A stretch of 20,262 nt of DNA from an uncultured Candidatus Saccharibacteria bacterium (GCA_964461185.1 CAYWTD010000007.1:1-20262); one strand, 5' to 3'. Numbered from the stretch's first letter, positions 1,400 to 20,238 are shown. The notes: generated from the letters alone by a model not told the origin. A program made the numbers and translations.

Positions 1400-2314
1400 T
1401 TATGATGTGGCAACTGATACATCGACCTCGGCAAGCTTTTTCACCGCTTTGGTTACTAAGGGCAGAATATCATCATAAAAATTAAGGTCAAGAATTTCAG
1501 AAAGTTTAAACCAACGCGCGTCATCAAGTCCCCCTGATTCACCAAGCTTTAATTCAGTATATTTTGAATTGGCCAAGAAATAAACAACCTGTTTTCTGTG
1601 CTGACCTTTTTCTGGATGATTTGCAACATATTCATTTTCTCCGATTTTTTCTACAATTTCGATATCAATTCCAAGTTCTTGTTTAATAGCTCTAATGGCG
1701 CCGTCCTCGTCAGATTCGTCTTTTTCTATTCCGCCTTTTGATAGAGTCCAGTGTCCAAAAACATCATGAACGAGCGCAATATAAATTTCATTATCAAGAA
1801 CTGAATAAATCACGGCGCCTGCCTTTTTCTCTATTGGCATTTCTTCAAAAGGAATATCACGACGTTTTTTTGGTTTGCCGTCATCTTTTCCTGGTTCACC
1901 AATTTCTTTATAAACAGCACCCAAAACTCCATTAACAAATTTACTGGATGATTCACCACCAAAAGTTTTTGCTAATTCAATGGCTTCATTAATCGCGACT
2001 TTTGAAGGAACCTCATCTCGATCAGAAAATAATAGTTCAGCTAAACCAATTCTTAAAATATTTCGATCAACAACAGAAATCTTATCAAGTGGCCAATCTG
2101 GCGCAGCCTTTGTAATAATTTTATCTAGATCAGATTTTTTACTTAAAACAGTCTCTACTAACTTCTTCATAAAAGGAGCGTCACTAATTCCAGGAGCGAA
2201 TTCCGTAGCGTTGCGTAAAATAGTATCATCAACCTCAAAGCCTAAACTATCTCTGAAATCCCATTCAAAGAGAGTTTGCAACACTATTGATCGTGAAAGG
2301 TGCCTATTCGCCAT
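1400..2314 (-). CDS. nusB: NusB transcription antitermination factor fused to a C-terminal NUDIX-fold domain
   Basis: The first ~140 aa are NusB-like: MANRHLSRSIVLQTLFEWDF..., VDRNILRIGLAELLF, KVAINEAIELAKTFGGESSSKFVNGVLGAVYKE. A Lys/Asp-rich linker follows. The C-terminal ~160 aa has a NUDIX-fold pattern with a Nudix-box-like stretch GGIEKDESDEDGAIRAIKQELGI, which reads GX5EX7R-A-U-x-Q-E-x-GU, i.e. it deviates from REUxEE at two acidic positions. It is a single uninterrupted ORF. Confidence 0.8.
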   Translation of the reverse strand: MANRHLSRSIVLQTLFEWDFRDSLGFEVDDTILRNATEFAPGISDAPFMKKLVETVLSKKSDLDKIITKAAPDWPLDKISVVDRNILRIGLAELLFSDRDEVPSKVAINEAIELAKTFGGESSSKFVNGVLGAVYKEIGEPGKDDGKPKKRRDIPFEEMPIEKKAGAVIYSVLDNEIYIALVHDVFGHWTLSKGGIEKDESDEDGAIRAIKQELGIDIEIVEKIGENEYVANHPEKGQHRKQVVYFLANSKYTELKLGESGGLDDARWFKLSEILDLNFYDDILPLVTKAVKKLAEVDVSVATS

Positions 2315-6882: not shown

Positions 6883-8613
6883 ATGAACACAGAAGACAAA
6901 ATGTTTAATGTCCGTCATTCTTTGGCCCATTTATTAGCAATGGAGGTTTTGAAATTTGATCCAAAAGCCAAATTAGCGATCGGCCCAGTAATTGAAAATG
7001 GTTTTTATTACGATTTTGATTTTAGCGAAGGAAAAACTCCGACTGAAAAAGATTTAAAAGATTTTCAAAAAGGAATAAAAAAACTAACTAATAAAAAGTT
7101 AGAATTTATTAAAGAAGAAATTTCTGAAAAAGACGCTCGTGAACTTTTCAAAGATAACGAATATAAAATTGAATTAATTGATGAACTTGTAAAAGATGGC
7201 AAACAATTATCGATTTATAAAACTGGCGATTTTGTTGATTTGTGTTCAGGTCCTCATATAAATACTACTGACGAAGTTAACGCTGACGCTTTTGAAATTA
7301 CAAAATTGGCTGGCGCTTATTGGCGTGGAGATGAAAAAAATAAAATGTTAACCAGAATTTATGGTTTAGCATTTGAAACAGAAGGAGAATTAGAGGATTA
7401 TAAAAAGAAGATGGCCGAAGCTGCAGAACGAGACCATCGAAAAATTGGAAAAGAAATGAATTTGTTTACTTTTTCTGATTTAGTTGGAGCAGGTCTACCA
7501 CTCTTTACTCCAAAAGGAACTGCTTTGCGAAATGCTTTGAAAAATAGACTTTTTGAAATTTCTTCTCGTTACGATATGCAAGAAGTTACAATTCCTCATT
7601 TAGCAAAAAGAAAATTATATGAAATTTCTGGACACGCTGATAAATTTGCTGATGAACTTATAAGAGTTGTTAGTCATTATGACGAGTTTGTTTTGAAACC
7701 AGTAAACTGTCCTCATCACACTCAGATTTATGCTTCTATTCCACGCAGTTACAAAGATTTGCCAGTTCGATTAATGGAGTCAACGATGCAATATCGTGAT
7801 GAAATGCCGGGAGAAATTGGTGGTTTAACCAGAGTTCGATCAATTACTTGTGATGATGGCCATATTTTCTGTACACCAGAACAAATAAAAGATGAAGTAA
7901 AAAATATTGCAAAAATTATCGAAGAATTTTATACAGACATCGGTTTATTTGGTACACACTGGGTTTCTCTATCTGTTCGTGATTATAAACATCCAGAAAA
8001 ATATATTGGCACGAGCGAAGTTTGGGACAAAGCAGAAAAAACTTTGGCGGAAATTTCTGATGAACTTGAATTAAACGCTAAAACAATTGAAGGTGAAGCG
8101 GCTTTGTATGGTCCAAAATTGGATTATATGTTCAAGGATTCACTAGGCAGAGAAAGACAGTTAGCAACGATCCAATTGGATTTCAATATGCCAGGACGAT
8201 TTGGTTTGGAATATACAGATAAAGACGGTCAGAAAAAAGCTCCTGTTATGATTCATCGAGCTATTTTGGGTTCATACGAAAGATTCTTGGCGATATTAAT
8301 CGAACATTTCGCTGGAAACTTTCCATATTGGATGGCGCCAGTTCAAGTTAAAGTTTTACCTGTTGGTGAATCTCATAATGAGAAATCAACTGAACTTTAT
8401 GAAGAATTAAAACATAGAAAAATTCGTGTTGAGTTAGAAAATTCTGATGAAGGTTTTGGTAAAAAAGTAAGAAAAGCTAAAGTTGAAAAAGTTCCTTACT
8501 TTATTGTCATCGGAGATAAAGAGATTGCCGAAAATAAATTTACGCTAGAAAGTCGTGATAAAGGAAATCTTGGGGTCTTTGATTTAGAAAATCTACTGAA
8601 AGAATTGAAATAA
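6883..8613 (+). CDS. thrS: Threonyl-tRNA synthetase (short form lacking the N-terminal TGS domain)
   Basis: 576 aa. It begins in the editing/second additional domain (HSLAHLLAMEV...GPVIENGFYYDFDF). The class II core shows the HRAILGS motif region and the zinc-site CPHH, and an anticodon-binding C-terminus is present. Confidence 0.95.
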   Translation: MNTEDKMFNVRHSLAHLLAMEVLKFDPKAKLAIGPVIENGFYYDFDFSEGKTPTEKDLKDFQKGIKKLTNKKLEFIKEEISEKDARELFKDNEYKIELIDELVKDGKQLSIYKTGDFVDLCSGPHINTTDEVNADAFEITKLAGAYWRGDEKNKMLTRIYGLAFETEGELEDYKKKMAEAAERDHRKIGKEMNLFTFSDLVGAGLPLFTPKGTALRNALKNRLFEISSRYDMQEVTIPHLAKRKLYEISGHADKFADELIRVVSHYDEFVLKPVNCPHHTQIYASIPRSYKDLPVRLMESTMQYRDEMPGEIGGLTRVRSITCDDGHIFCTPEQIKDEVKNIAKIIEEFYTDIGLFGTHWVSLSVRDYKHPEKYIGTSEVWDKAEKTLAEISDELELNAKTIEGEAALYGPKLDYMFKDSLGRERQLATIQLDFNMPGRFGLEYTDKDGQKKAPVMIHRAILGSYERFLAILIEHFAGNFPYWMAPVQVKVLPVGESHNEKSTELYEELKHRKIRVELENSDEGFGKKVRKAKVEKVPYFIVIGDKEIAENKFTLESRDKGNLGVFDLENLLKELK

Positions 8614-8618
8614 TAAAA

Positions 8619-8647
8619 ATGACTCGCGAAAGCGAGTCATTTTGTTT
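8619..8647. terminator. Bidirectional intrinsic terminator shared by convergent thrS (+) and the 168-aa gene (-)
   Basis: ATGACTCGC-gaaa-GCGAGTCAT is a perfect 9-bp stem with a GNRA tetraloop. It is flanked by AAAAA upstream and TTTGTTT downstream, so both strands read hairpin plus U-run. The thrS stop is at 8611..8613 and the minus-strand gene stop at 8654. Confidence 0.8.
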
Positions 8648-8653
8648 CCCAGA

Positions 8654-9160
8654 TCAGGGCAGAATGAGTGCCGGCTCTTCTTCGCCGAAGTGACAGAGTT
8701 TGATGTTCTCCCACACAATCACAACAGCATCGCGATATTCGATTTCCGCCAAAACCGGCACACACACGCGGTTGTTAGGACCGACAATCACGGATTTCCA
8801 TCCCGGAATTCTCATGCCGAAATAGTATCTCCGAAAGAAATCCAGCCCACGCTCAAGCATCGCATTCAGGTGCTCGATACCTAGACATTTGTCCAACATA
8901 CCGTGCGACTTGAGATGCTCATAGATGTGAATGCCCTCTACACCTTGATTTTGGTGACAATGAATATATGTCTTCAACTCTTCGGTGTTGAAAAGGGTTG
9001 CATAACGTTGCTCCAATTCTGGGTTCAGCGGAACAACAGTCCACCCCTCCGGATACAAAAGTTTAACCGGTGGCTCAATACCAACAATAACAACTGGATC
9101 AACGTAACCACCAAACTTTGGTGCCAGTTTTTTTCTCTTCATCCAGCGCCTTGTGCTCAT
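8654..9160 (-). CDS. Hypothetical protein of unknown family on a compositionally foreign insert
   Basis: 168 aa, MSTRRWMKRKKLAPKFGGYVDPVVIVGIEPP...IHCHQNQGVEGIHIYEHLKSHG... I recognise no family. The SD is perfect (AGGAGG, then 6 nt, then ATG). Hand-counted GC is roughly 50-57% in a 60-nt sample, against roughly 23-38% in neighbouring core genes. It has its own promoter and shares the terminator with thrS. Confidence 0.7.
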   Translation of the reverse strand: MSTRRWMKRKKLAPKFGGYVDPVVIVGIEPPVKLLYPEGWTVVPLNPELEQRYATLFNTEELKTYIHCHQNQGVEGIHIYEHLKSHGMLDKCLGIEHLNAMLERGLDFFRRYYFGMRIPGWKSVIVGPNNRVCVPVLAEIEYRDAVVIVWENIKLCHFGEEEPALILP

Positions 9161-9217
9161 TCTATTCCTCCTGTGTTTCTTTTATTTTTAAAACAAGAAC
9201 TATAATGTCTATAGAGA

Positions 9218-9246
9218 TTTATACATTGAAATAATATAAAAGTCAA
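9218..9246 (-). promoter_or_regulatory. Candidate sigma-70 promoter for the 168-aa gene
   Basis: The minus strand reads TTGACT (9246..9241), a 17-nt spacer, then TATAAA (9223..9218). That places the start site about 50 nt upstream of the ATG at 9160. Confidence 0.45.
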
Positions 9247-9255
9247 ATGAACAAT

Positions 9256-9885
9256 TTAATTAATTCTTTCTGCCTCGATAACCCACCTATCTTCCCTTCT
9301 ACCAAATGTATTACAAGTTGAAATTGTTAATTTTCTAACTTCACTATTAAACCTAATTAATGCCTCATTTTCGTTTACCAATTCGATCTTTGTAACTTTA
9401 TAAAAATAACTTTTATTATTAGCAACAATTTCTATAACATCGCCAAAATTTAACTTTGAAATATTATTAAAAACTTTGTAGGCGGGATTTTGAACTCCTG
9501 TAAATAAATCAGCGCTGTGACCAAAAATAAAAATATTTCCCACTTCAATTGAGCCCGATCCCGGATAATGAACAGCCCCTTTGTTCAGATAAGAATCAAG
9601 CTCGGCGACGTTAACTGTATTTGGTTGTTGAATATCAGCAGAAATTTCTAGCTTGTTAATTATAATTTGATCTGGTCGTGTATATCTCACTTCGCCATTA
9701 CTATCCAGATTATAATTAATCGGTTGTCCAATTATTACAGGTGGTTTGTTGAATAAATAGTCATACAAACTTATACTTTCTGGAGCCAAGCCTGATAAGG
9801 AAAAAACAAAAAAGAAAATTAGAAAAATAACTGAAAAAATACCGAAAAAATAAAACTTACCTGATTTGTTAATTTCTTGATTCAT
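9256..9885 (-). CDS. Sortase-family transpeptidase (membrane-anchored)
   Basis: 209 aa with an N-terminal TM helix (FYFFGIFSVIFLIFFFVF). The sortase catalytic motifs are in order: IFIFGHSADLF (His), LTISTCNTFG (TLxTC Cys) and RWVIEAERI (Arg). Confidence 0.8.
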   Translation of the reverse strand: MNQEINKSGKFYFFGIFSVIFLIFFFVFSLSGLAPESISLYDYLFNKPPVIIGQPINYNLDSNGEVRYTRPDQIIINKLEISADIQQPNTVNVAELDSYLNKGAVHYPGSGSIEVGNIFIFGHSADLFTGVQNPAYKVFNNISKLNFGDVIEIVANNKSYFYKVTKIELVNENEALIRFNSEVRKLTISTCNTFGRREDRWVIEAERIN

Positions 9886-10127: not shown

Positions 10128-12782
10128 TTAATTAAAACTTGATACTTTCTTTCCCCTCTTAACATCAAAAGAAAATTCCTTGTTTTTAATCAAAACTGTA
10201 ACACAGTCGCCTTCTCTTAAATCACTTTTTATAATTAATTGCGCAAGCGGATTCAAAATCTTATCTTGAATTAATCTGCGAAGTGGTCGTGCACCATAAT
10301 GCGGATCATAACCGTCTTTTGCTAATATTTCCAAAACTTCTGGAGTAATTTTGAAACCAATTCCCTTGTTGTACAAACGATCTTTAACTTCATCAATTTG
10401 AATTGCGGCAATTTTCTTTATCGCCTCTTCATTCAAAATATCAAAAATAACTATGTCATCTAGGCGATTCAGAAATTCTGGCCTAAAATGTTCCTTCAAA
10501 GCTTTCTGAACATTTTGCTTTGCATCAGTATATTGAGCAGAATTACTTTCACCAAATGAAAAACCGATTTTTTCCATTTTATCAATATGTTCCGAACCAA
10601 TATTTGAAGTTAAAATAATTATGCTGTTTTTGAAATTAACAACGCGTCCTTTTGTGTCAGTTAATCGTCCGTTATCCAATACTTGAAGCAAAATATTAAA
10701 AACTTCTGGATGTGCCTTTTCAATTTCATCAAATAAAATCACTGAATAAGGCCTGTGGCGAAGAGTTTCCGTCAACGTCCCAGATTCCTCATAACCAACA
10801 TAACCTGGGGGTGCACCAATCAGTTTAGAAACAGAATGTTTTTCCATATATTCGGACATGTCAACCCTGACCAAAGCCTTGTCATCATTAAACATAAATT
10901 CTGCCAACGCTTTTGTTAATTCAGTTTTACCAACCCCAGTTGGACCAAGAAAAATAAAAGAACCAATCGGTCGATTTGGGTCAGAAACGCCAGCGCGTGA
11001 ACGACGAATCGTATCTGCAATTTTTCTGACAGCTTCATTTTGCCCAATAATTCTCTTTTGTAATTCATCTTCCATTCGTGACAATTTTTCCATTTCTTGC
11101 TCAAGCATTTTTGAAACGGGAATTCCTGTCCAACGAGAAACAACCGCAGCGATGTCTTCTTCTGTAATTTCTTCTTTTAAAATTTGACGCGAGCTTTGTA
11201 ATTGACGCAGTCGTTTTTCCTGAGTTTTCAAATCTTTTTCCAATTGTGGGATTGTTCCATATCGAATTTCTGCGGCCTTTGTTAAATCAACTGCCGCCTC
11301 TGCAGACTCCGCATTCAGGCGGGCTAATTCTAATTTGGATTTAAAATCTTTAATCGCCGTAATGGCTTCTTTTTCATTTTTCCATTTCAGCTCAAGTTCT
11401 TTTATTCCCTCTTTCAAATTTGCAACATCGCGATTAATTTCTTTTAATCGATCGTTAGTTTTTTTTGATTTCTTTGATTCGCTCTTCAATGCCTCTCGTT
11501 CAATTTCCAAACGAGTAATTTTACGACGAGTAGATTCAAGTTCGGGTGGCATATTTTCAAGAGAAATTTTCAAAGTGGAAGATGCCTCATCAATCAAGTC
11601 AACCGCTTTGTCTGGTAAAAATCTGTCACTTATGTAGCGACTAGATAATTCAACCGATGCGACAATTGCCTCATCAGAAATTCGAACTCCATGATAAAGT
11701 TCGTATTTTTCTTTTAAACCACGCATAATAGAAACAGCGTCTTCGATAGAAGGCTCTGACACCAGAACCGGTTGAAATCGTCTGGTGAGCGCCGCATCTT
11801 TTTCAATATATTTTTGATACTCTTTTAAAGTTGTCGCTCCAATTGCCTTTAGTTCACCGCGTGCCAAAGCCGGCTTTAACATATTTGAAGCATCAAGAGA
11901 ACCTTCTGATGCACCAGCGCCAGCCAATGTGTGAATTTCATCAATAAACAAAATTATCTTTCCTTCTGATTGAATAACTTCTTTTATAATTTTCTTTAGA
12001 CGGTCTTCAAATTCGCCCCTATATTTTGTGCCAGCAACCAATGCTCCCAAATCAAGAGTAACTAACTCTTTGTCTTTCAGAGATTCTGGAACATCTCCTT
12101 GGGCAATGCGAATTGCCAAACCCTCAATAATTGCTGTTTTACCGACACCCGCCTCACCAATCAAAATTGGATTATTTTTTGTTCTTCTGGAAAGAATTTG
12201 GACAACACGATTTATTTCTTGATCACGTCCTATAACCGGATCAAGTTTATTTTGCGCCGCTCTTTCTGTTAAACTTTGAGTAAATTTCCTAATAGATTTT
12301 AAAGTTTTTGTTGATTGAGTGATGTCCTCTTTGCTATTTCTTAATTCGTTGAGAATTTTGCCAACTTCATTTTTATCAATTTTAAAAGTTTCTAAAACTT
12401 CTTTCGCTTCACTTTTTATATCAAAATTTGCCAAAAACAAATGTTCTGTTGAGACAAAACCGTCACCAAGGGCCTCCGCAATTCGCACGGAATGTTCAAT
12501 AATTTGCGCCAGTTCAGGTGACAAAAACATTTGAAACGAGGCGGAAAGAGTTTCTTTATTTTCTGTTGGTTCTATGGATTCTAAAATAGTTTCAGTCATT
12601 AACAGAGAATCAACTCCCATTTTGTCCAAAATAGAAACCACCATACTTTCATCTTGCATAATCAAAGCAGCCAATAAATGAATTGGCGCAACATTATTTT
12701 GACCACGCTCGATTGCTAATTCGTGAGCGTGTTTTATTGCTTCTTTAGCTTTTAATGTGAATTTGTTAAATGAAGGCATCAT
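10128..12782 (-). CDS. clpB: ATP-dependent chaperone ClpB
   Basis: 884 aa. It has a Clp N-domain and NBD1 Walker [17 protein letters not shown] long coiled-coil middle domain ([22 protein letters not shown]...) follows, then NBD2 Walker [16 protein letters not shown] and the sensor-2 region GARPLRR. Confidence 0.95.
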
Positions 12783-16968: not shown

Positions 16969-17301
16969 ATGACAGAACATCCTCACAGAAAAGAAAAAAT
17001 TTTGGGTGTTGTTAGCAGAGCCGCATCTGAATTTATTGAAAGAGAATCTAACGGAAAATCCCTGATTACAGTTACCAATGTTGATCTCTCAACAGACTTT
17101 CAAAAAGCCGTAATTTTTGTTACAGTTTTCCCAGACCAAGAAGAAAAAAAGGCCGTTGATTTCTTGAAAAGAAACTTAAATGAATTCCGTGAATTCATAA
17201 AAAGTCACACTCGCCTTCAACATATTCCTTGGTTTGATTTTGAAATAGATCGAGGCGAAAAAAAACGTCAAAGAATTGACGAGATTTCTCGAGAAATTTA
17301 A
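16969..17301 (+). CDS. rbfA: Ribosome-binding factor A
   Basis: 110 aa. RKEKILGVVSRAASEFIERESNGKSLITVTNVDLSTDFQKAVIFVT...HIPWFDFEIDRGEK matches the RbfA KH-like domain pattern (..DPR....iTVt.V.vS.DL..A.Vy... P.L.F..D). It starts 5 bp after infB. Confidence 0.85.
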   Translation: MTEHPHRKEKILGVVSRAASEFIERESNGKSLITVTNVDLSTDFQKAVIFVTVFPDQEEKKAVDFLKRNLNEFREFIKSHTRLQHIPWFDFEIDRGEKKRQRIDEISREI

Positions 17302-17324
17302 AATGGCGTGGTGGCGAAGTGGAA

Positions 17325-17396
17325 ACGCTGCGGTCTGCAAAACCGCCATGCGCGGGTTCGATTCCCGCCCACGCCTCAATAATGTTTGAGCTCTCA
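17325..17396 (+). tRNA. tRNA-Cys (anticodon GCA)
   Basis: 72 nt. The acceptor GGCGTGG/CCACGCC pairs perfectly. The anticodon arm GCGGT-CTGCAAA-ACCGC gives GCA. The T-arm is GCGGG-TTCGATT-CCCGC, and the discriminator is U, as is typical for Cys. There is no encoded CCA. Confidence 0.85.
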
Positions 17397-17448
17397 TGCG
17401 GGGGTTCGAATGTTAGAAAATAGAATAAGCCCGGGTGGCGGAATTGGT

Positions 17449-17530
17449 ATACGCGCACGACTTAAAATCGTGTCTCAAACGGGATGCGGGTTCGACTCCC
17501 GCCCCGGGCACAATAGAAATATTCGCGATA
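17449..17530 (+). tRNA. tRNA-Leu (anticodon TAA)
   Basis: 82 nt. The acceptor GCCCGGG/CCCGGGC pairs perfectly. The anticodon arm CACGA-CTTAAAA-TCGTG gives UAA. A long variable arm (type II) and the T-arm GCGGG-TTCGACT-CCCGC are present, and the discriminator is A. Confidence 0.85.
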
Positions 17531-17542
17531 CGCGATTTATTT

Positions 17543-17567
17543 TTATTAAATCCGCCCATAGCTCAGC
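17543..17567 (+). other. Inter-tRNA hairpin plus T-run (processing or terminator-like element) between tRNA-Leu(TAA) and tRNA-Lys
   Basis: TCGCG-ata-CGCGA (5-bp stem, 3-nt loop) is followed by TTTATTTTTATT. Confidence 0.3.
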
Positions 17568-17571
17568 TGGT

Positions 17572-17644
17572 AGAGCAGTCGCCTCTTAAGCGATTGGTCG
17601 TAGGTTCAAGTCCTACTGGGCGGACACGAAAATAGTATTTTTAT
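17572..17644 (+). tRNA. tRNA-Lys (anticodon CTT)
   Basis: 73 nt. The acceptor CCGCCCA/TGGGCGG pairs perfectly, which gives an unusual C1:G72. The D-arm is GCTCAGCTGGTAGAGC. The anticodon arm GTCGC-CTCTTAA-GCGAT gives CUU. The T-arm is GTAGG-TTCAAGT-CCTAC, and the discriminator is A. Confidence 0.8.
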
Positions 17645-17646
17645 TT

Positions 17647-17669
17647 TCGAGGGTTGTATTTGAGATTTT
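17647..17669 (+). other. Inter-tRNA AT-rich hairpin between tRNA-Lys and tRNA-Leu(TAG)
   Basis: CGAAAATA-gtatttt-TATTTTCG is a perfect 8-bp inverted repeat with a 7-nt loop, starting 3 nt after the tRNA-Lys discriminator. Confidence 0.3.
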
Positions 17670-17697
17670 ATCTGTGTAAGATATATATTCAGTTTAT

Positions 17698-17780
17698 GCG
17701 CGAGTGGCGGAATTGGCAGACGCACTTGCCTTAGGAGCAAGCGAGGTTTCCTCGTGGAGGTTCAAGTCCTCTCTCGCGCA
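17698..17780 (+). tRNA. tRNA-Leu (anticodon TAG)
   Basis: 83 nt. The acceptor GCGCGAG/CTCGCGC pairs perfectly. The anticodon arm CTTGC-CTTAGGA-GCAAG gives UAG. The variable-arm hairpin is CGAGG-ttt-CCTCG, the T-arm is GGAGG-TTCAAGT-CCTCT, and the discriminator is A. Confidence 0.85.
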
Positions 17781-17828
17781 CACAAGACAAAAAAACACGG
17801 CCATGCATCGTTTTTTTTGTTTTTTCTA

Positions 17829-17858
17829 TTGACATTTAGCCATAAAACGTGCTATAAT
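17829..17858 (+). promoter_or_regulatory. Consensus sigma-70 promoter with extended -10 driving the SPFH operon
   Basis: TTGACA (17829..17834), an 18-nt spacer, then TGcTATAAT (TG at 17850..17851, TATAAT at 17853..17858). Both hexamers match consensus perfectly. The predicted start site is near 17865, about 55 nt before the ATG at 17920. Confidence 0.6.
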
Positions 17859-17919
17859 ATGTTTCAGAAAAATAAACCCGTGGTTTAACGCCACACATGT
17901 ACATTGAAAAGGAGTTGTT

Positions 17920-18984
17920 ATGGAAAAGTTAATTGGTTTTTCGTCTTTTGTCGCCGTATTATCATTCATTGGAATGGCGGTTGGCTTTCTCGGTACGATT
18001 TTTGGAAATGAACAAAACAAGCCCGTGGAACAAGCTCCACGTTGGTTGTTCTTTGTGTCATTTCTCGTGCTGGTAACTAGTGTTACCTATTTGGTGACGC
18101 TTGCGTGCCTTCAGGTCTTTCTTGGAATTACTCATGGTTTCTTGTATACAGCAATTCCAATTCTCGTATCTGGATATTGTTTGTCGACAGTGTTTGTAAA
18201 AACACATGAGTCTTTCCTTGTGAATCTGAAAAGCAACGAGTTCGCCATGGCGAACGATAAACTGTTTGGCCGATTTTGTGTAAACGAATCTGGCATTCAA
18301 AATTACCGAGTGTTTTTTGGTGGTCTAACCGCCAAATTTCCCTGGGAAATTGTTGAACCAAACAGTGATCTAAATCGTGATCGCAGAGTTGAGGTGGACT
18401 ATAACACCGAATTCAAGGATGGAACTACTGGGCATGTAAGGTTTTCTTTCTTACTCAAGCCAAACCCAATGAAACTTCAGCAATATGTCACGACCAGCAC
18501 CAACACGGATGAAAGAACAAAAATCCTTGAAGGAGTCTTTGGCGACACAATCAAAATGATCCTGAGCGATAAGTTCAAGAAAAAGACGATTGATCAAGCC
18601 ACAGCAAAGAAGGCTGTGATTCGTGACGAGGTTCTCAAAAAGGGCCGTACTGAAATCGGGACGCAGGAAGAGACCTATGGTGTTACATTCGGTAGTTTCG
18701 TCATAAGCGACATCGACTACCCCGAAAACATCAGAGACGCTTATGAACAAGAAATTGTTTTCAAGCGTTTCATGGTGCCTGTAAAGCAGTTGCTCAAGCA
18801 GAGAGGTTATACTGATGAACAAATTAATGGAACCTGTGATGAAAATGACAGGGTTCCATTTGAAGTTCTGAAATGGGCATTTGAGCAAGCACAAATCAAT
18901 ACTGGATTGGCGACGCTGGAAATCAAAGACTGGCGTGGCCTTGAGGGTGTTATGAAGGCGCTTGGGAATATTGGTTCCAAATAA
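17920..18984 (+). CDS. Polytopic membrane protein with an SPFH/band-7 (stomatin/prohibitin-like) domain
   Basis: 354 aa. It has three N-terminal hydrophobic helices (LIGFSSFVAVLSFIGMAVGFLGTIF; WLFFVSFLVLVTSVTYLVTLACLQVFL; FLYTAIPILVSGYCLSTVFV). The segment GLTAKFPWEIVEP...GHVRFSFLLKPNPMKLQQYVTTSTN...ERTKILEGVFGDTIKMILSDKF...AVIRDEVLKKGRTEIGTQEETYGVTFGSFVISDIDYPENIRDAYEQE aligns block by block with the prohibitin/stomatin SPFH domain (GLHFRIPW...; [73 protein letters not shown]). It has a strong SD (AAGGAG, 5 nt before the ATG) and elevated GC. Confidence 0.65.
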   Translation: MEKLIGFSSFVAVLSFIGMAVGFLGTIFGNEQNKPVEQAPRWLFFVSFLVLVTSVTYLVTLACLQVFLGITHGFLYTAIPILVSGYCLSTVFVKTHESFLVNLKSNEFAMANDKLFGRFCVNESGIQNYRVFFGGLTAKFPWEIVEPNSDLNRDRRVEVDYNTEFKDGTTGHVRFSFLLKPNPMKLQQYVTTSTNTDERTKILEGVFGDTIKMILSDKFKKKTIDQATAKKAVIRDEVLKKGRTEIGTQEETYGVTFGSFVISDIDYPENIRDAYEQEIVFKRFMVPVKQLLKQRGYTDEQINGTCDENDRVPFEVLKWAFEQAQINTGLATLEIKDWRGLEGVMKALGNIGSK

Positions 18985-18990
18985 GGAGAG

Positions 18991-19566
18991 ATGATTATGA
19001 GCGAGACAGAGAACAACAGGTCCATTAGTCAAGGATTGGCTAAGAAGATATCGAAAAGCATTATGTGGCTTTCGATTATCATTGTGGTCATTATCGCACT
19101 GATGAACCTGTCAAAATCAAAGCAGTCATTTTCTTCTTGGGTGGACAAAAAAACACAAAAAACCAAGACGACTGAGATTGCAACGCCTAGCCCTTTTACA
19201 CCAAGTCGTGGGTCTTTTACCCTCATTCCTGGTGGAAAAGTCGTTAGGATCAGCATGAGAAAAGTGCGAAGTATAGATTGGTGCCCTGAAACCACCGACG
19301 AGTACTTTGTTCGATATATAAAGATGGATGGCTTGCCGTGGAGGCCCATTACATCTTCTGCTGATGGCTGGATATCATCGAGAAACAATTATAGTCCGGA
19401 ACAAGTGATGGCAGGTGCCGGAAACATTCTGGAGGTACAGTTCAAAGTACCAAAATCAAAAACTTCTCGATGGTTTTGTAAAGTAAGTGAAATACCTTAC
19501 GAGCCGGTGACAATTAGGATCAGCGATGATCCGACATTCGATAGGAATCCAAGACGATACTTGTAA
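18991..19566 (+). CDS. Single-pass membrane protein of unknown family, translationally coupled to the SPFH gene (probable true start 18997)
   Basis: 191 aa. After a basic N-terminus comes one TM helix (IMWLSIIIVVIIALMNL), then a ~140-aa domain with two Cys (DWCPETT, RWFCKVSE) and no motif I recognise. The SD AGGAG (18984..18988) overlaps the upstream TAA stop. The spacing favours the second ATG at 18997. It ends in the double stop TAATAG. Confidence 0.65.
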   Translation: MIMSETENNRSISQGLAKKISKSIMWLSIIIVVIIALMNLSKSKQSFSSWVDKKTQKTKTTEIATPSPFTPSRGSFTLIPGGKVVRISMRKVRSIDWCPETTDEYFVRYIKMDGLPWRPITSSADGWISSRNNYSPEQVMAGAGNILEVQFKVPKSKTSRWFCKVSEIPYEPVTIRISDDPTFDRNPRRYL

Positions 19567-19630: not shown

Positions 19631-19873
19631 TTAGCCGTATACGGTGCTTAAAGCAATTCTAACTATTGTAAAGACAGACATCATGATCAACATACCAATC
19701 AGCCCCCAAATAATGTGCTGTCTACCAGTTTGCCTCGCCTCAGCATTATCAGAGTCTTTTATGTAAACAAAGACACCCCAAATGAAAACAACTAATGCTG
19801 CTGCAAAAAGAAGTCGAATTAGTGGATTAACAACCACATTAACAACTTTGGATAAAAATTGATCAAGTTCCAT
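19631..19873 (-). CDS. Small two-helix membrane protein, T4SS-pilin-like (TrbC/VirB2-like family common in Patescibacteria)
   Basis: 80 aa. The pattern ...LLFAAALVVFIWGVFVYIKDSDNAEARQTGRQHIIWGLIGMLIMMSVFTIV is helix-1, then GG/WG-x-x-Y, a short polar loop with AR/AK, then helix-2. It is paralogous to the next gene. Confidence 0.6.
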   Translation of the reverse strand: MELDQFLSKVVNVVVNPLIRLLFAAALVVFIWGVFVYIKDSDNAEARQTGRQHIIWGLIGMLIMMSVFTIVRIALSTVYG

Positions 19874-19893: not shown

Positions 19894-20238
19894 TTATCTT
19901 CCTGGTATTGAAGGCAATGTAACTTGGCCAGAACCACCTGTGTTCACACCTATAGTCTGTCCCAATAATTCAACAATTCCCCAAACAGAAACCATAACGA
20001 ACAAAACAATGATTCCATAAATCATAACGCTTCGCGCTTCTGTTCTCTTGTCCTCATCAGTGGCAACAACGTATTGGAGTATTCCCCAAATAAATACAAC
20101 AACAGCAATACCAATAATAAGAGGAATCAATGAAGATACCAACCCTTGTATGTTTGCGATTACACCGGCTAGACCATCTGCAGCAAAAAGCGCAGTCGGA
20201 AGTAAAACAGCAGTTAATCCTGAAATATACCTAATCAT
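19894..20238 (-). CDS. T4SS-pilin-like small membrane protein with an N-terminal signal peptide (tandem paralog)
   Basis: 114 aa with a signal-peptide-like N-terminus (MIRYISGLTAVLLPTALFA/ADG). The core LIPLIIGIAVVVFIWGILQYVVATDEDKRTEARSVMIYGIIVLFVMVSVWGIV aligns with the 80-aa neighbour (shared VVFIWG...Y...D...EAR....G.I......SV..IV). It carries a Gly/Thr-rich C-terminal tail. Confidence 0.6.
   Translation of the reverse strand: MIRYISGLTAVLLPTALFAADGLAGVIANIQGLVSSLIPLIIGIAVVVFIWGILQYVVATDEDKRTEARSVMIYGIIVLFVMVSVWGIVELLGQTIGVNTGGSGQVTLPSIPGR

Follow-up and report, generated by a model that had tools for sequence, protein, structure and literature searches.

The window analysed here, 20,262 nt of a contig deposited as an uncultured Candidatus Saccharibacteria bacterium (GCA_964461185.1, CAYWTD010000007.1:1-20262), carries a single gene for a protein of 168 amino acids (aa) between thrS and a sortase gene. 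An earlier note on this DNA had described the gene as a GC-rich insert encoding a protein of unknown family, with its own promoter and a terminator shared with thrS. Its description of the layout holds: the gene is a monocistronic unit of promoter, Shine-Dalgarno (SD) sequence, coding sequence (CDS) and terminator, convergent with thrS, and the SD motif, its spacer and the start codon were all read in the sequence (Table 1). Our analysis points to a divergent member of a Paceibacteria protein family whose canonical members are variable proteins of diversity-generating retroelements (DGRs).

The promoter-like element named in the earlier note is likewise present. It was missing from the output of the consensus scanner because that program demands T at position 6 of the -10 hexamer. 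Two related genomes (L034 and L036) keep its -35 region, TTGACTTTT, at this slot, and a third has a similar form, TTGATTTTT (L003; comparison loci are cited by number throughout). The hairpin shared with thrS lies 13 nt past the stop codon of the 168-aa gene and does have a GNRA loop, GAAA on the plus strand, which reads TTTC on the sense strand of the gene. Folded as RNA it reaches -21.3 kcal/mol (z = -6.4). It is kept in L034; other relatives have different hairpins 3' of thrS.

Table 1. Features of the thrS-sortase slot, in positions of the window.
Feature	Position	Strand	Basis and remarks
thrS, 576 aa, conserved left flank	6883..8613	+	TIGR00418, 7e-189; synteny in relatives
Bidirectional intrinsic-terminator hairpin of thrS and the 168-aa gene	8616..8643	.	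12-bp stem, then U-run
Variable block (CDS and 5' untranslated region)	8646..9221	.	no nucleotide-level alignment with L034
CDS of the 168-aa protein	8654..9160	-	open reading frame call; GC-rich divergent member of the Paceibacteria DGR variable-protein family
Equivalent of the DGR variable region, residues 122-168 (KSVIVGPNN...EEEPALILP)	8657..8797	-	codon alignment to variable and template regions of L075 and L076
Shine-Dalgarno AGGAGG	9167..9172	-	6-nt spacer to ATG 9158-9160; read from sequence
Promoter-like TTGACT-17-TATAAA	9218..9246	-	-35 TTGACT 9241-9246, -10 TATAAA 9218-9223; prediction
Gene of sortase-domain protein, 209 aa, conserved right flank	9256..9885	-	PF04203, 4.6e-16; synteny in L034, L003 and L005

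The open reading frame (ORF) has a GC content of 47.3% (0.56, 0.34 and 0.52 at the first, second and third codon positions), against 33.2% in thrS and 30.5% in the sortase gene, where GC at third positions (GC3) is 0.21 and 0.22. The other housekeeping ORFs of the window lie at 31-36% overall and at 0.20-0.30 in GC3. What the earlier note had called the sharpest compositional break of the window is thus real, and the strongest among its protein-coding genes, but the top 300-nt GC window is a tRNA cluster (17251-17550; 0.487 versus 0.467 at the 168-aa gene). The contrast of 57% to 23% given there was overstated, 23% being close to the GC3 of the neighbours and not to their GC, and only isolated 30-nt windows of the gene get to 60%. 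The elevated GC is confined to the CDS, with an AT-rich promoter and 5' untranslated region (UTR).

GC-rich islands of AT-rich genomes are often misassemblies or RNA genes, and chimerism had been raised in the earlier note. The same junctions of sortase gene, 168-aa gene and thrS are present in two Logan assemblies of different runs (SRR11702770 and SRR27197515), with 100% and 99.97% identity over 10 kb, and the same architecture recurs in relatives. The window, L001 and L002 show 100% identity across the 168-aa gene, and the three single-nucleotide polymorphisms (SNPs) fall elsewhere, at 2324, 4585 and 6364. Neither Rfam nor ARAGORN gave an RNA or tRNA match in 8600-9260, the tRNAs of the window lying elsewhere. 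In view also of hundreds of homologues with conserved core residues and of a confident fold prediction (see below), an assembly chimera, contamination or a GC-rich RNA gene in place of a protein gene is a negligible explanation. The nearest ThrS relatives are metagenome-assembled genomes (MAGs) of Patescibacteria/Paceibacterota. We conclude that the 168-aa gene is genuine and intact, forms a transcription unit of its own and belongs to the chromosome of a Paceibacteria-type Patescibacterium.

The protein was found to have many relatives, which only an exhaustive HMMER search combined with a tighter alignment brought to light; word-indexed searches with the single protein or a 60-sequence alignment returned only the protein itself or four proteins. 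A phmmer search against 1.84 billion cluster representatives gave 376 matches at E<=1e-3, 47 of them at <=1e-10. Profile A3, made from 12 canonical members with the proteins of the window, L034 and L036 left out, retrieved 541 proteins, none of which has a Pfam domain, and it matched the window protein with E=3.3e-26 and 108.6 bits (scaled to the database of 1.84 billion representatives). Matches with an annotation are recorded as "hypothetical protein", their sources being Candidatus Nomurabacteria, Taylorbacteria, Giovannonibacteria and Paceibacterota, and one further member comes from a "Patescibacteria group bacterium". Family proteins are small (about 150-250 aa) and without signal peptide or membrane segment, and strong SDs (AAGGAGG) also precede other family members.

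The alignment core comprises ~145 residues and reads VDRS..P.YP.W...HPELE..GP.EFD...WLH..QK.G..G..IY.HLK...ML..CLGL.DL.AIQ.KG..FFRK.F.GK.VFGWKSV....G.L.VP.L.E....V.L.W.WL...W....PALRF; its core motifs are YP..W, HPELE, Q.G..G..IY.HL, CLG, G..FFR, GWKSV, VP.L and W. The window protein is homologous over this whole core and carries the core motifs, keeping Y36-P37, Q70, G76, L83, G105, F109, W121, S123, P135, L137 and W150 and departing from the family at some positions (e.g. R to P, G to Y, D to H). Neither the protein nor the family profile found a family match in Pfam, NCBIfam, PHROGs, PADLOC or PDB sequences; the best that the PADLOC defence models offered was at chance level (E=0.035). Judged by these comparisons of sequence, the protein belongs to a large, widespread Paceibacteria family without an established name, and the gene is not the orphan that it had seemed.

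The basic N-terminus and the IHCHQNQGVEGIHIYEHLKSHG stretch reported earlier are present in the protein, but the metal site that had been considered for the latter does not hold up. Among 153 aligned domains, the Cys and the second His of IHCHQ occur in none of the others, and conservation within the stretch is limited to the first His (78%), Gln (90%), Gly (90%) and Leu (90%). The His of EHL is conserved in 39% and the later His residues in 0-39%, while the Cys of KCLG reaches 83%.

Elsewhere, family genes are solitary, monocistronic and in accessory positions, with DUF4258/DUF2283 and HicAB toxin-antitoxin pairs as neighbours, ParAB upstream and an extracytoplasmic function (ECF) sigma factor downstream. 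In L068 (4350-6461), the family gene stands directly after a DUF4258/DUF2283 pair and before a Y1-transposase-like gene, and in L071 (5890-6343) directly after a HicB-like/HicA pair. A different layout was seen in L037 (8001-18379; JGI Ga0118719_1000642), where at least five paralogues have a common N-terminal domain of ~130 aa (MRRIKND...KCLVFTPDN...YHLAKGQSEYTHEAYHADPVDAYLNLSFES) fused to one to three tandem family domains or to other C-termini. A 639-aa AAA+ ATPase adjoins this cluster, and the layout resembles modular NTPase-linked conflict systems.

Two canonical members are linked to DGRs. In L075, the last 132 nt of the family gene form a variable region (VR, 10452-10583), and a template region (TR, 10913-11044) of 90% identity lies 461 nt downstream, with 12 of 13 mismatches at TR adenines. 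The TR is followed by an Avd-like ORF (NF033474, 4e-8, below the model cut-off) and a reverse transcriptase (RT; RVT_1, 2.7e-24). L076, from Candidatus Nomurabacteria, has all 17 of its VR/TR mismatches at TR adenines and an Avd-like ORF; it may be a decaying or split DGR, since no RT was found within 10 kb. In each of the two cassettes (L075 10001-12466, L076 10001-11367), the Avd-like ORF is on the opposite strand. By this adenine-restricted pattern, L075 and L076 encode DGR variable proteins, and because a TR mismatched at adenines is the defining DGR signature, we regard the family as a DGR variable-protein family. This assignment fits published surveys of targets in the candidate phyla radiation (CPR), whose clade-2 DGR targets are without transmembrane (TM) or known domains and probably hold new variants of the C-type lectin (C-Lec) fold (PMC8144416). 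A VR-like 3' end is also retained in three further members, L068, L072 and L071, whose flanks contain no TR; this hints at the existence of TR-distant or relic targets.

The window copy shows no DGR features in any test run, across the 20-kb window and three assemblies. No repeat of the last 200 nt of the gene was found in the 20-kb window or in L001, by the same test that detected L075 and L076. Among the ORFs of the 20-kb window, which are housekeeping, pilin or unassigned only, there is neither an RVT_1 nor an Avd match. The VR-equivalent does not vary among the three assemblies. It carries a 2-aa insertion and an I[KR]LCH[FY] motif that otherwise occurs only in L034 and L036, and from one slot allele to another it diverges as much as the remainder of the protein does. 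The 3' block AATAACCCCGCGYTKCGYTTCGCA/NNPALRFA, conserved in L075, L076 and L068, is replaced by GAAGAGCCGGCACTCATTCTGCCC (EEPALILP), and L034 and L036 differ again. In addition, the downstream hairpin has no GRNA loop on the sense strand. Functional DGR targets require a GC-rich hairpin downstream, its 4-nt loop reading GRNA on the sense strand (Guo et al. 2011, PMC3240598), as shown for phage-type DGRs and not for CPR, and in BPP-1 a CTTT loop abolished homing (PMC3240598).

These results bear on whether the gene could be an active target of a remote DGR, with TR, Avd and RT elsewhere in the genome rewriting its last ~45 codons. Two other family members are demonstrable DGR targets, the VR-like ends of L068, L072 and L071 persist with no flanking TR, and our search for TR and RT was limited to 20 kb of the genome. 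Against it stand the missing TR and RT in the window, a gene that is identical in three assemblies while SNPs fall elsewhere, the lack of the conserved 3' block, a VR-equivalent no more variable among slot alleles than the remainder, and the TTTC loop. We therefore consider a remote DGR acting on this gene improbable.

Variation is instead found among the alleles of the slot. In L034, the closest relative, whose ThrS is 97% identical to that of the window, the variable block (Table 1) is bordered by sequence of 90% nucleotide identity on the thrS side and 83% on the sortase side. In the L034 slot, a TTGACTTTT promoter and the same terminator enclose the gene for P0006, a family protein of 161 aa with only 35% identity to that of the window, and the slot of L036 (ThrS 84%) has a third version of the family (P0007; 33-35% identity). 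Divergence of the slot gene thus does not scale with genome distance, because identities of 33-35% are seen at both 97% and 84% ThrS identity. Between window and L034, identity at third codon positions is 81.5% in thrS versus 35% in the slot gene, that is, saturation. In a neighbour-joining (NJ) tree of 153 family domains, the three slot proteins formed an exclusive clade (bootstrap 94/100).

The slot of other relatives has different contents. L003 (7766-8098; ThrS 95%) has a 110-aa ORF with no family match behind the promoter-like TTGATTTTT, with a GC3 of 0.34 versus ~0.22 in its neighbours, and in L005 thrS and the sortase gene are direct neighbours. In L004 (7733-9956; MAG RA.bin143, ThrS 82%), a 215-aa ORF (49% GC) and a 311-aa membrane protein (51%) lie 3' of thrS (40%), and synteny with the window stops 3' of thrS. 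The 110-aa and 215-aa ORFs were tried as remote family members and proved unrelated in a remote-homology test. Scanning metagenomes with ThrS brought up no other close relative of the slot (best identity 82%), and the more distant thrS neighbourhoods contained no family member.

The homologues of L034 and L036, which occupy this slot behind a homologous TTGACTTTT promoter, argue against the gene being an insert in the sense of a one-off acquisition. The earlier note had taken same-slot homologues of native composition as the sign of a native gene, and this is only half borne out because the slot homologues exist but share the high GC. A horizontal insertion that is recent and confined to this genome, be it a moron, the cargo of a phage or plasmid, or the defence or toxin gene of a GC-rich donor, would account for a compositional break made up of one gene with its own expression signals, and family members elsewhere do adjoin toxin-antitoxin pairs and a transposase-like gene. 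With relatives carrying homologues at the same position, it is nevertheless very unlikely. Searches by tblastn against phage and plasmid collections gave no homologue, nor did PHROGs or PADLOC give a match, and a reading as a phage or defence moron is not supported. Of the viral-contig queries, one was without match and one yielded a single doubtful IMG/VR locus, a contig on which the homologue has a context of sugar-nucleotide/methyltransferase and polysaccharide-synthesis genes. Our scan of the window found no integrase, mobile-element genes, direct repeats or att-like sites flanking the slot, and the neighbours are all housekeeping genes. A homing endonuclease, an integron cassette and a toxin-immunity system were also considered and rejected, since the locus has neither a nuclease motif nor attC-like or repeated ends and lacks a partner gene.

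The simplest reading of the locus is that of a single-gene variable slot exchanging old alleles or unrelated cassettes. The breakpoints of such exchange would be placed within the promoter/5' UTR on one side and within the terminator on the other, at the limits of the variable block. Horizontal gene transfer (HGT) is common in Patescibacteria and takes place mostly between Patescibacteria (PMC12455944).

The compositional bias was followed across the family by comparing the gene with its neighbours at 13 loci (window, L032-L034, L036, L037, L039, L068, L071, L072 and L074-L076). In this sample, which is small and not chosen at random, GC3 of the family gene was higher by 0.16 on average (Wilcoxon p=0.006) and the highest of the analysed genes at 8 of the 13 loci. 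Third-position AT skew was 0.14 lower (p=0.0007), and at 4-fold sites GC was increased by 0.195 (p=0.0024) and A/(A+T) decreased by 0.10 (p=0.013). The bias is one of GC enrichment and adenine depletion, and it is also seen in family copies with no DGR nearby. L075 shows it within a genome of 51% GC (family gene 60%, GC3 0.81), and in L076 the target gene has 50% GC versus 30%, host-like, in the adjoining Avd-like gene. For DGRs in general, about 20% have been reported to deviate by at least 5% GC from their hosts (PMC5758913). Much of the GC excess can be put down to repeated transfer out of a GC-richer gene pool, which leaves the adenine-specific component and the cases of L075 and L076 unaccounted for.

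A different explanation would be in-place divergence of a resident gene by locally raised, compositionally biased mutation, for example by adenine mutagenesis linked to reverse transcription and reaching the whole gene, now or in the past, with no need for allele exchange. In its favour are the single clade of the three slot genes with their common promoter and terminator, synonymous saturation between flanks of 83-90% identity, the GC enrichment and sense-strand adenine depletion at the 13 loci, and a GC-rich target beside a host-like Avd-like gene in L076. Known DGRs, however, mutate only the TR-templated region, and their priming needs sequences 3' of the TR (an established mechanism; target requirements in PMC3240598). 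The window contains no RT, T is depleted as well as A at third positions in most loci, the unrelated ORF in the L003 slot is explicable only by replacement, and identities of 33-35% at ThrS identities of both 97% and 84% do not scale with time. We therefore judge in-place divergence unlikely as the source of the slot alleles.

Adenine mutagenesis may also be combined with allele exchange. The synonymous GC enrichment and the depletion of sense-strand adenines, common to family members of unrelated genomes, might then be the footprint of adenine-mutagenic reverse transcription, and the thrS-slot genes would once have been DGR targets and would now draw their diversity from cassette exchange behind a fixed promoter. 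For this to be so, the whole target gene could occasionally be exposed, or selection could purge adenines from scaffolds required to withstand the mutagenesis. The link between the bias and adenine mutagenesis is for now an attractive idea, and we put the chances of this footprint reading low.

With regard to structure, AlphaFold2 (AF2) run with the family alignment gave a confident model (predicted local distance difference test, pLDDT, 86.7; predicted template modelling score, pTM, 0.81), and the single-sequence run a pLDDT of 35. Foldseek returned no significant match of the predicted structure in PDB or BFVD. Gly, Pro and aromatic residues predominate at the near-invariant positions, among which no set looks catalytic. 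We infer that the family provides a ligand-binding scaffold, possibly with a divergent C-type-lectin-like fold. The window protein would then bind a ligand or a protein via a variable C-terminal face.

Taken together, we posit, with a probability of roughly 0.6, that the 168-aa gene is a hyperdivergent member of the Paceibacteria DGR variable-protein family, bound to its slot, uncoupled from DGRs and subject to whole-allele turnover. In canonical members, the last ~41-44 codons are the VR, rewritten from a nearby TR by adenine-mutagenic reverse transcription, and the C-terminal beta-strands would form the variable binding face. The window copy and its homologues in L034 and L036 would represent a divergent subfamily that lost the coupling to a DGR or never had it. 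Diversity of the slot in this lineage would come from whole-allele turnover, in which nearly identical chromosomes exchange very old alleles or unrelated cassettes and keep the resident promoter and terminator. Such exchange would probably take place through recombination or HGT within Patescibacteria. Swapping of alleles under a resident promoter would explain why the CDS but not the promoter is compositionally foreign.

Several points weigh against this explanation. The slot subfamily is present in three genomes only, and long branches could affect the NJ clade. Alleles that have long circulated in AT-rich relatives should have lost their GC3 of 0.38-0.62, and a simple GC-rich donor is insufficient because this GC3 has not decayed, the family gene ranks highest at 8 of 13 loci, and L075 and the host-like Avd-like gene of L076 do not fit it. 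Furthermore, a TR or RT could still lie beyond the 20 kb of the genome that were searched.

The remainder of the window is that of an ordinary chromosomal region with RNase III, a NusB-NUDIX fusion, L32, RNase HII, DnaE, ThrS, sortase, ClpB, IF-2, RbfA and T4SS-pilin-like proteins. ThrS has no match to an N-terminal TGS domain, its first Pfam domain being tRNA_SAD at residues 110-160. The fusion is a 304-aa protein (1400-2314, minus strand) joining NusB (PF01029) and NUDIX (PF00293), and it is also found in L001 and L002. Two small T4SS_pilin (PF18895) proteins are encoded in tandem at 19631-19873 and 19894-20238 on the minus strand, the second weakly matching DUF5671. A second stretch of elevated GC (40-49%) extends over 17100-19566. 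It begins with four tRNA genes (Cys, Leu, Lys, Leu; 17305-17781), which are followed by a 354-aa SPFH/Band-7 ORF (17920-18984; GC 42%, GC3 0.44) and a 191-aa ORF with no family match (18991-19566; GC3 0.45). This stretch is possibly a tRNA-adjacent acquired islet.

With these results, an apparently orphan foreign insert becomes a member of a protein family that is hypermutated by CPR retroelements, and this bears on the cellular role of CPR targets, which have neither membrane anchor nor known domain. While the kind of gene was already known, the allele turnover and the family-wide synonymous GC/adenine bias are new and testable. If general, the bias would be a cheap signature that helps to pick out DGR targets and their relics in metagenomes, and it would give new insight into the reach of adenine mutagenesis; should it be the footprint considered above, composition alone could flag present and past DGR targets.

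Among known systems, phage morons are similar in that the 168-aa gene is an autonomous unit of promoter, SD, CDS and terminator with atypical composition; unlike them, it lies outside a prophage, its neighbourhood is free of phage genes, and the phage collections gave no homologue. The thrS-sortase slot also resembles flexible genomic islets or hypervariable slots that lie between conserved core genes and hold allelic cassettes kept up by recombination. As in these, conserved flanks, promoter and terminator enclose a content that differs by genome, being family allele A, allele B, an unrelated ORF or nothing, and the alleles are diverged to saturation whatever the genome distance. It differs from hypervariable islets in consisting of a single gene with no integrase, att sites or repeats, and its exchange mechanism is inferred. 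The DGR variable proteins with solved structures, Mtd of Bordetella phage, TvpA of Treponema, TaqVP of Thermus and the archaeal AvpA, have the CLec fold (PMC2408619, PMC6328139, PMC5006420). With the CPR DGR targets of clade 2 (Roux et al. 2021, PMC8144416; CPR DGRs of Paul et al. 2017, cited in PMC10221324), the window protein shares homology, namely to the members bearing VR and TR, and like the targets reported it is small and without TM segment, signal peptide or Pfam domain. Unlike them, the window copy has no TR, Avd or RT in 20 kb, no conserved VR 3' end, no sense-strand GRNA hairpin and no VR variation between assemblies. It belongs, in contrast to the canonical targets, to a separate subfamily tied to the thrS-sortase slot, where the same scaffold appears to be diversified in a second way, by the turnover of very old alleles at a fixed chromosomal position.

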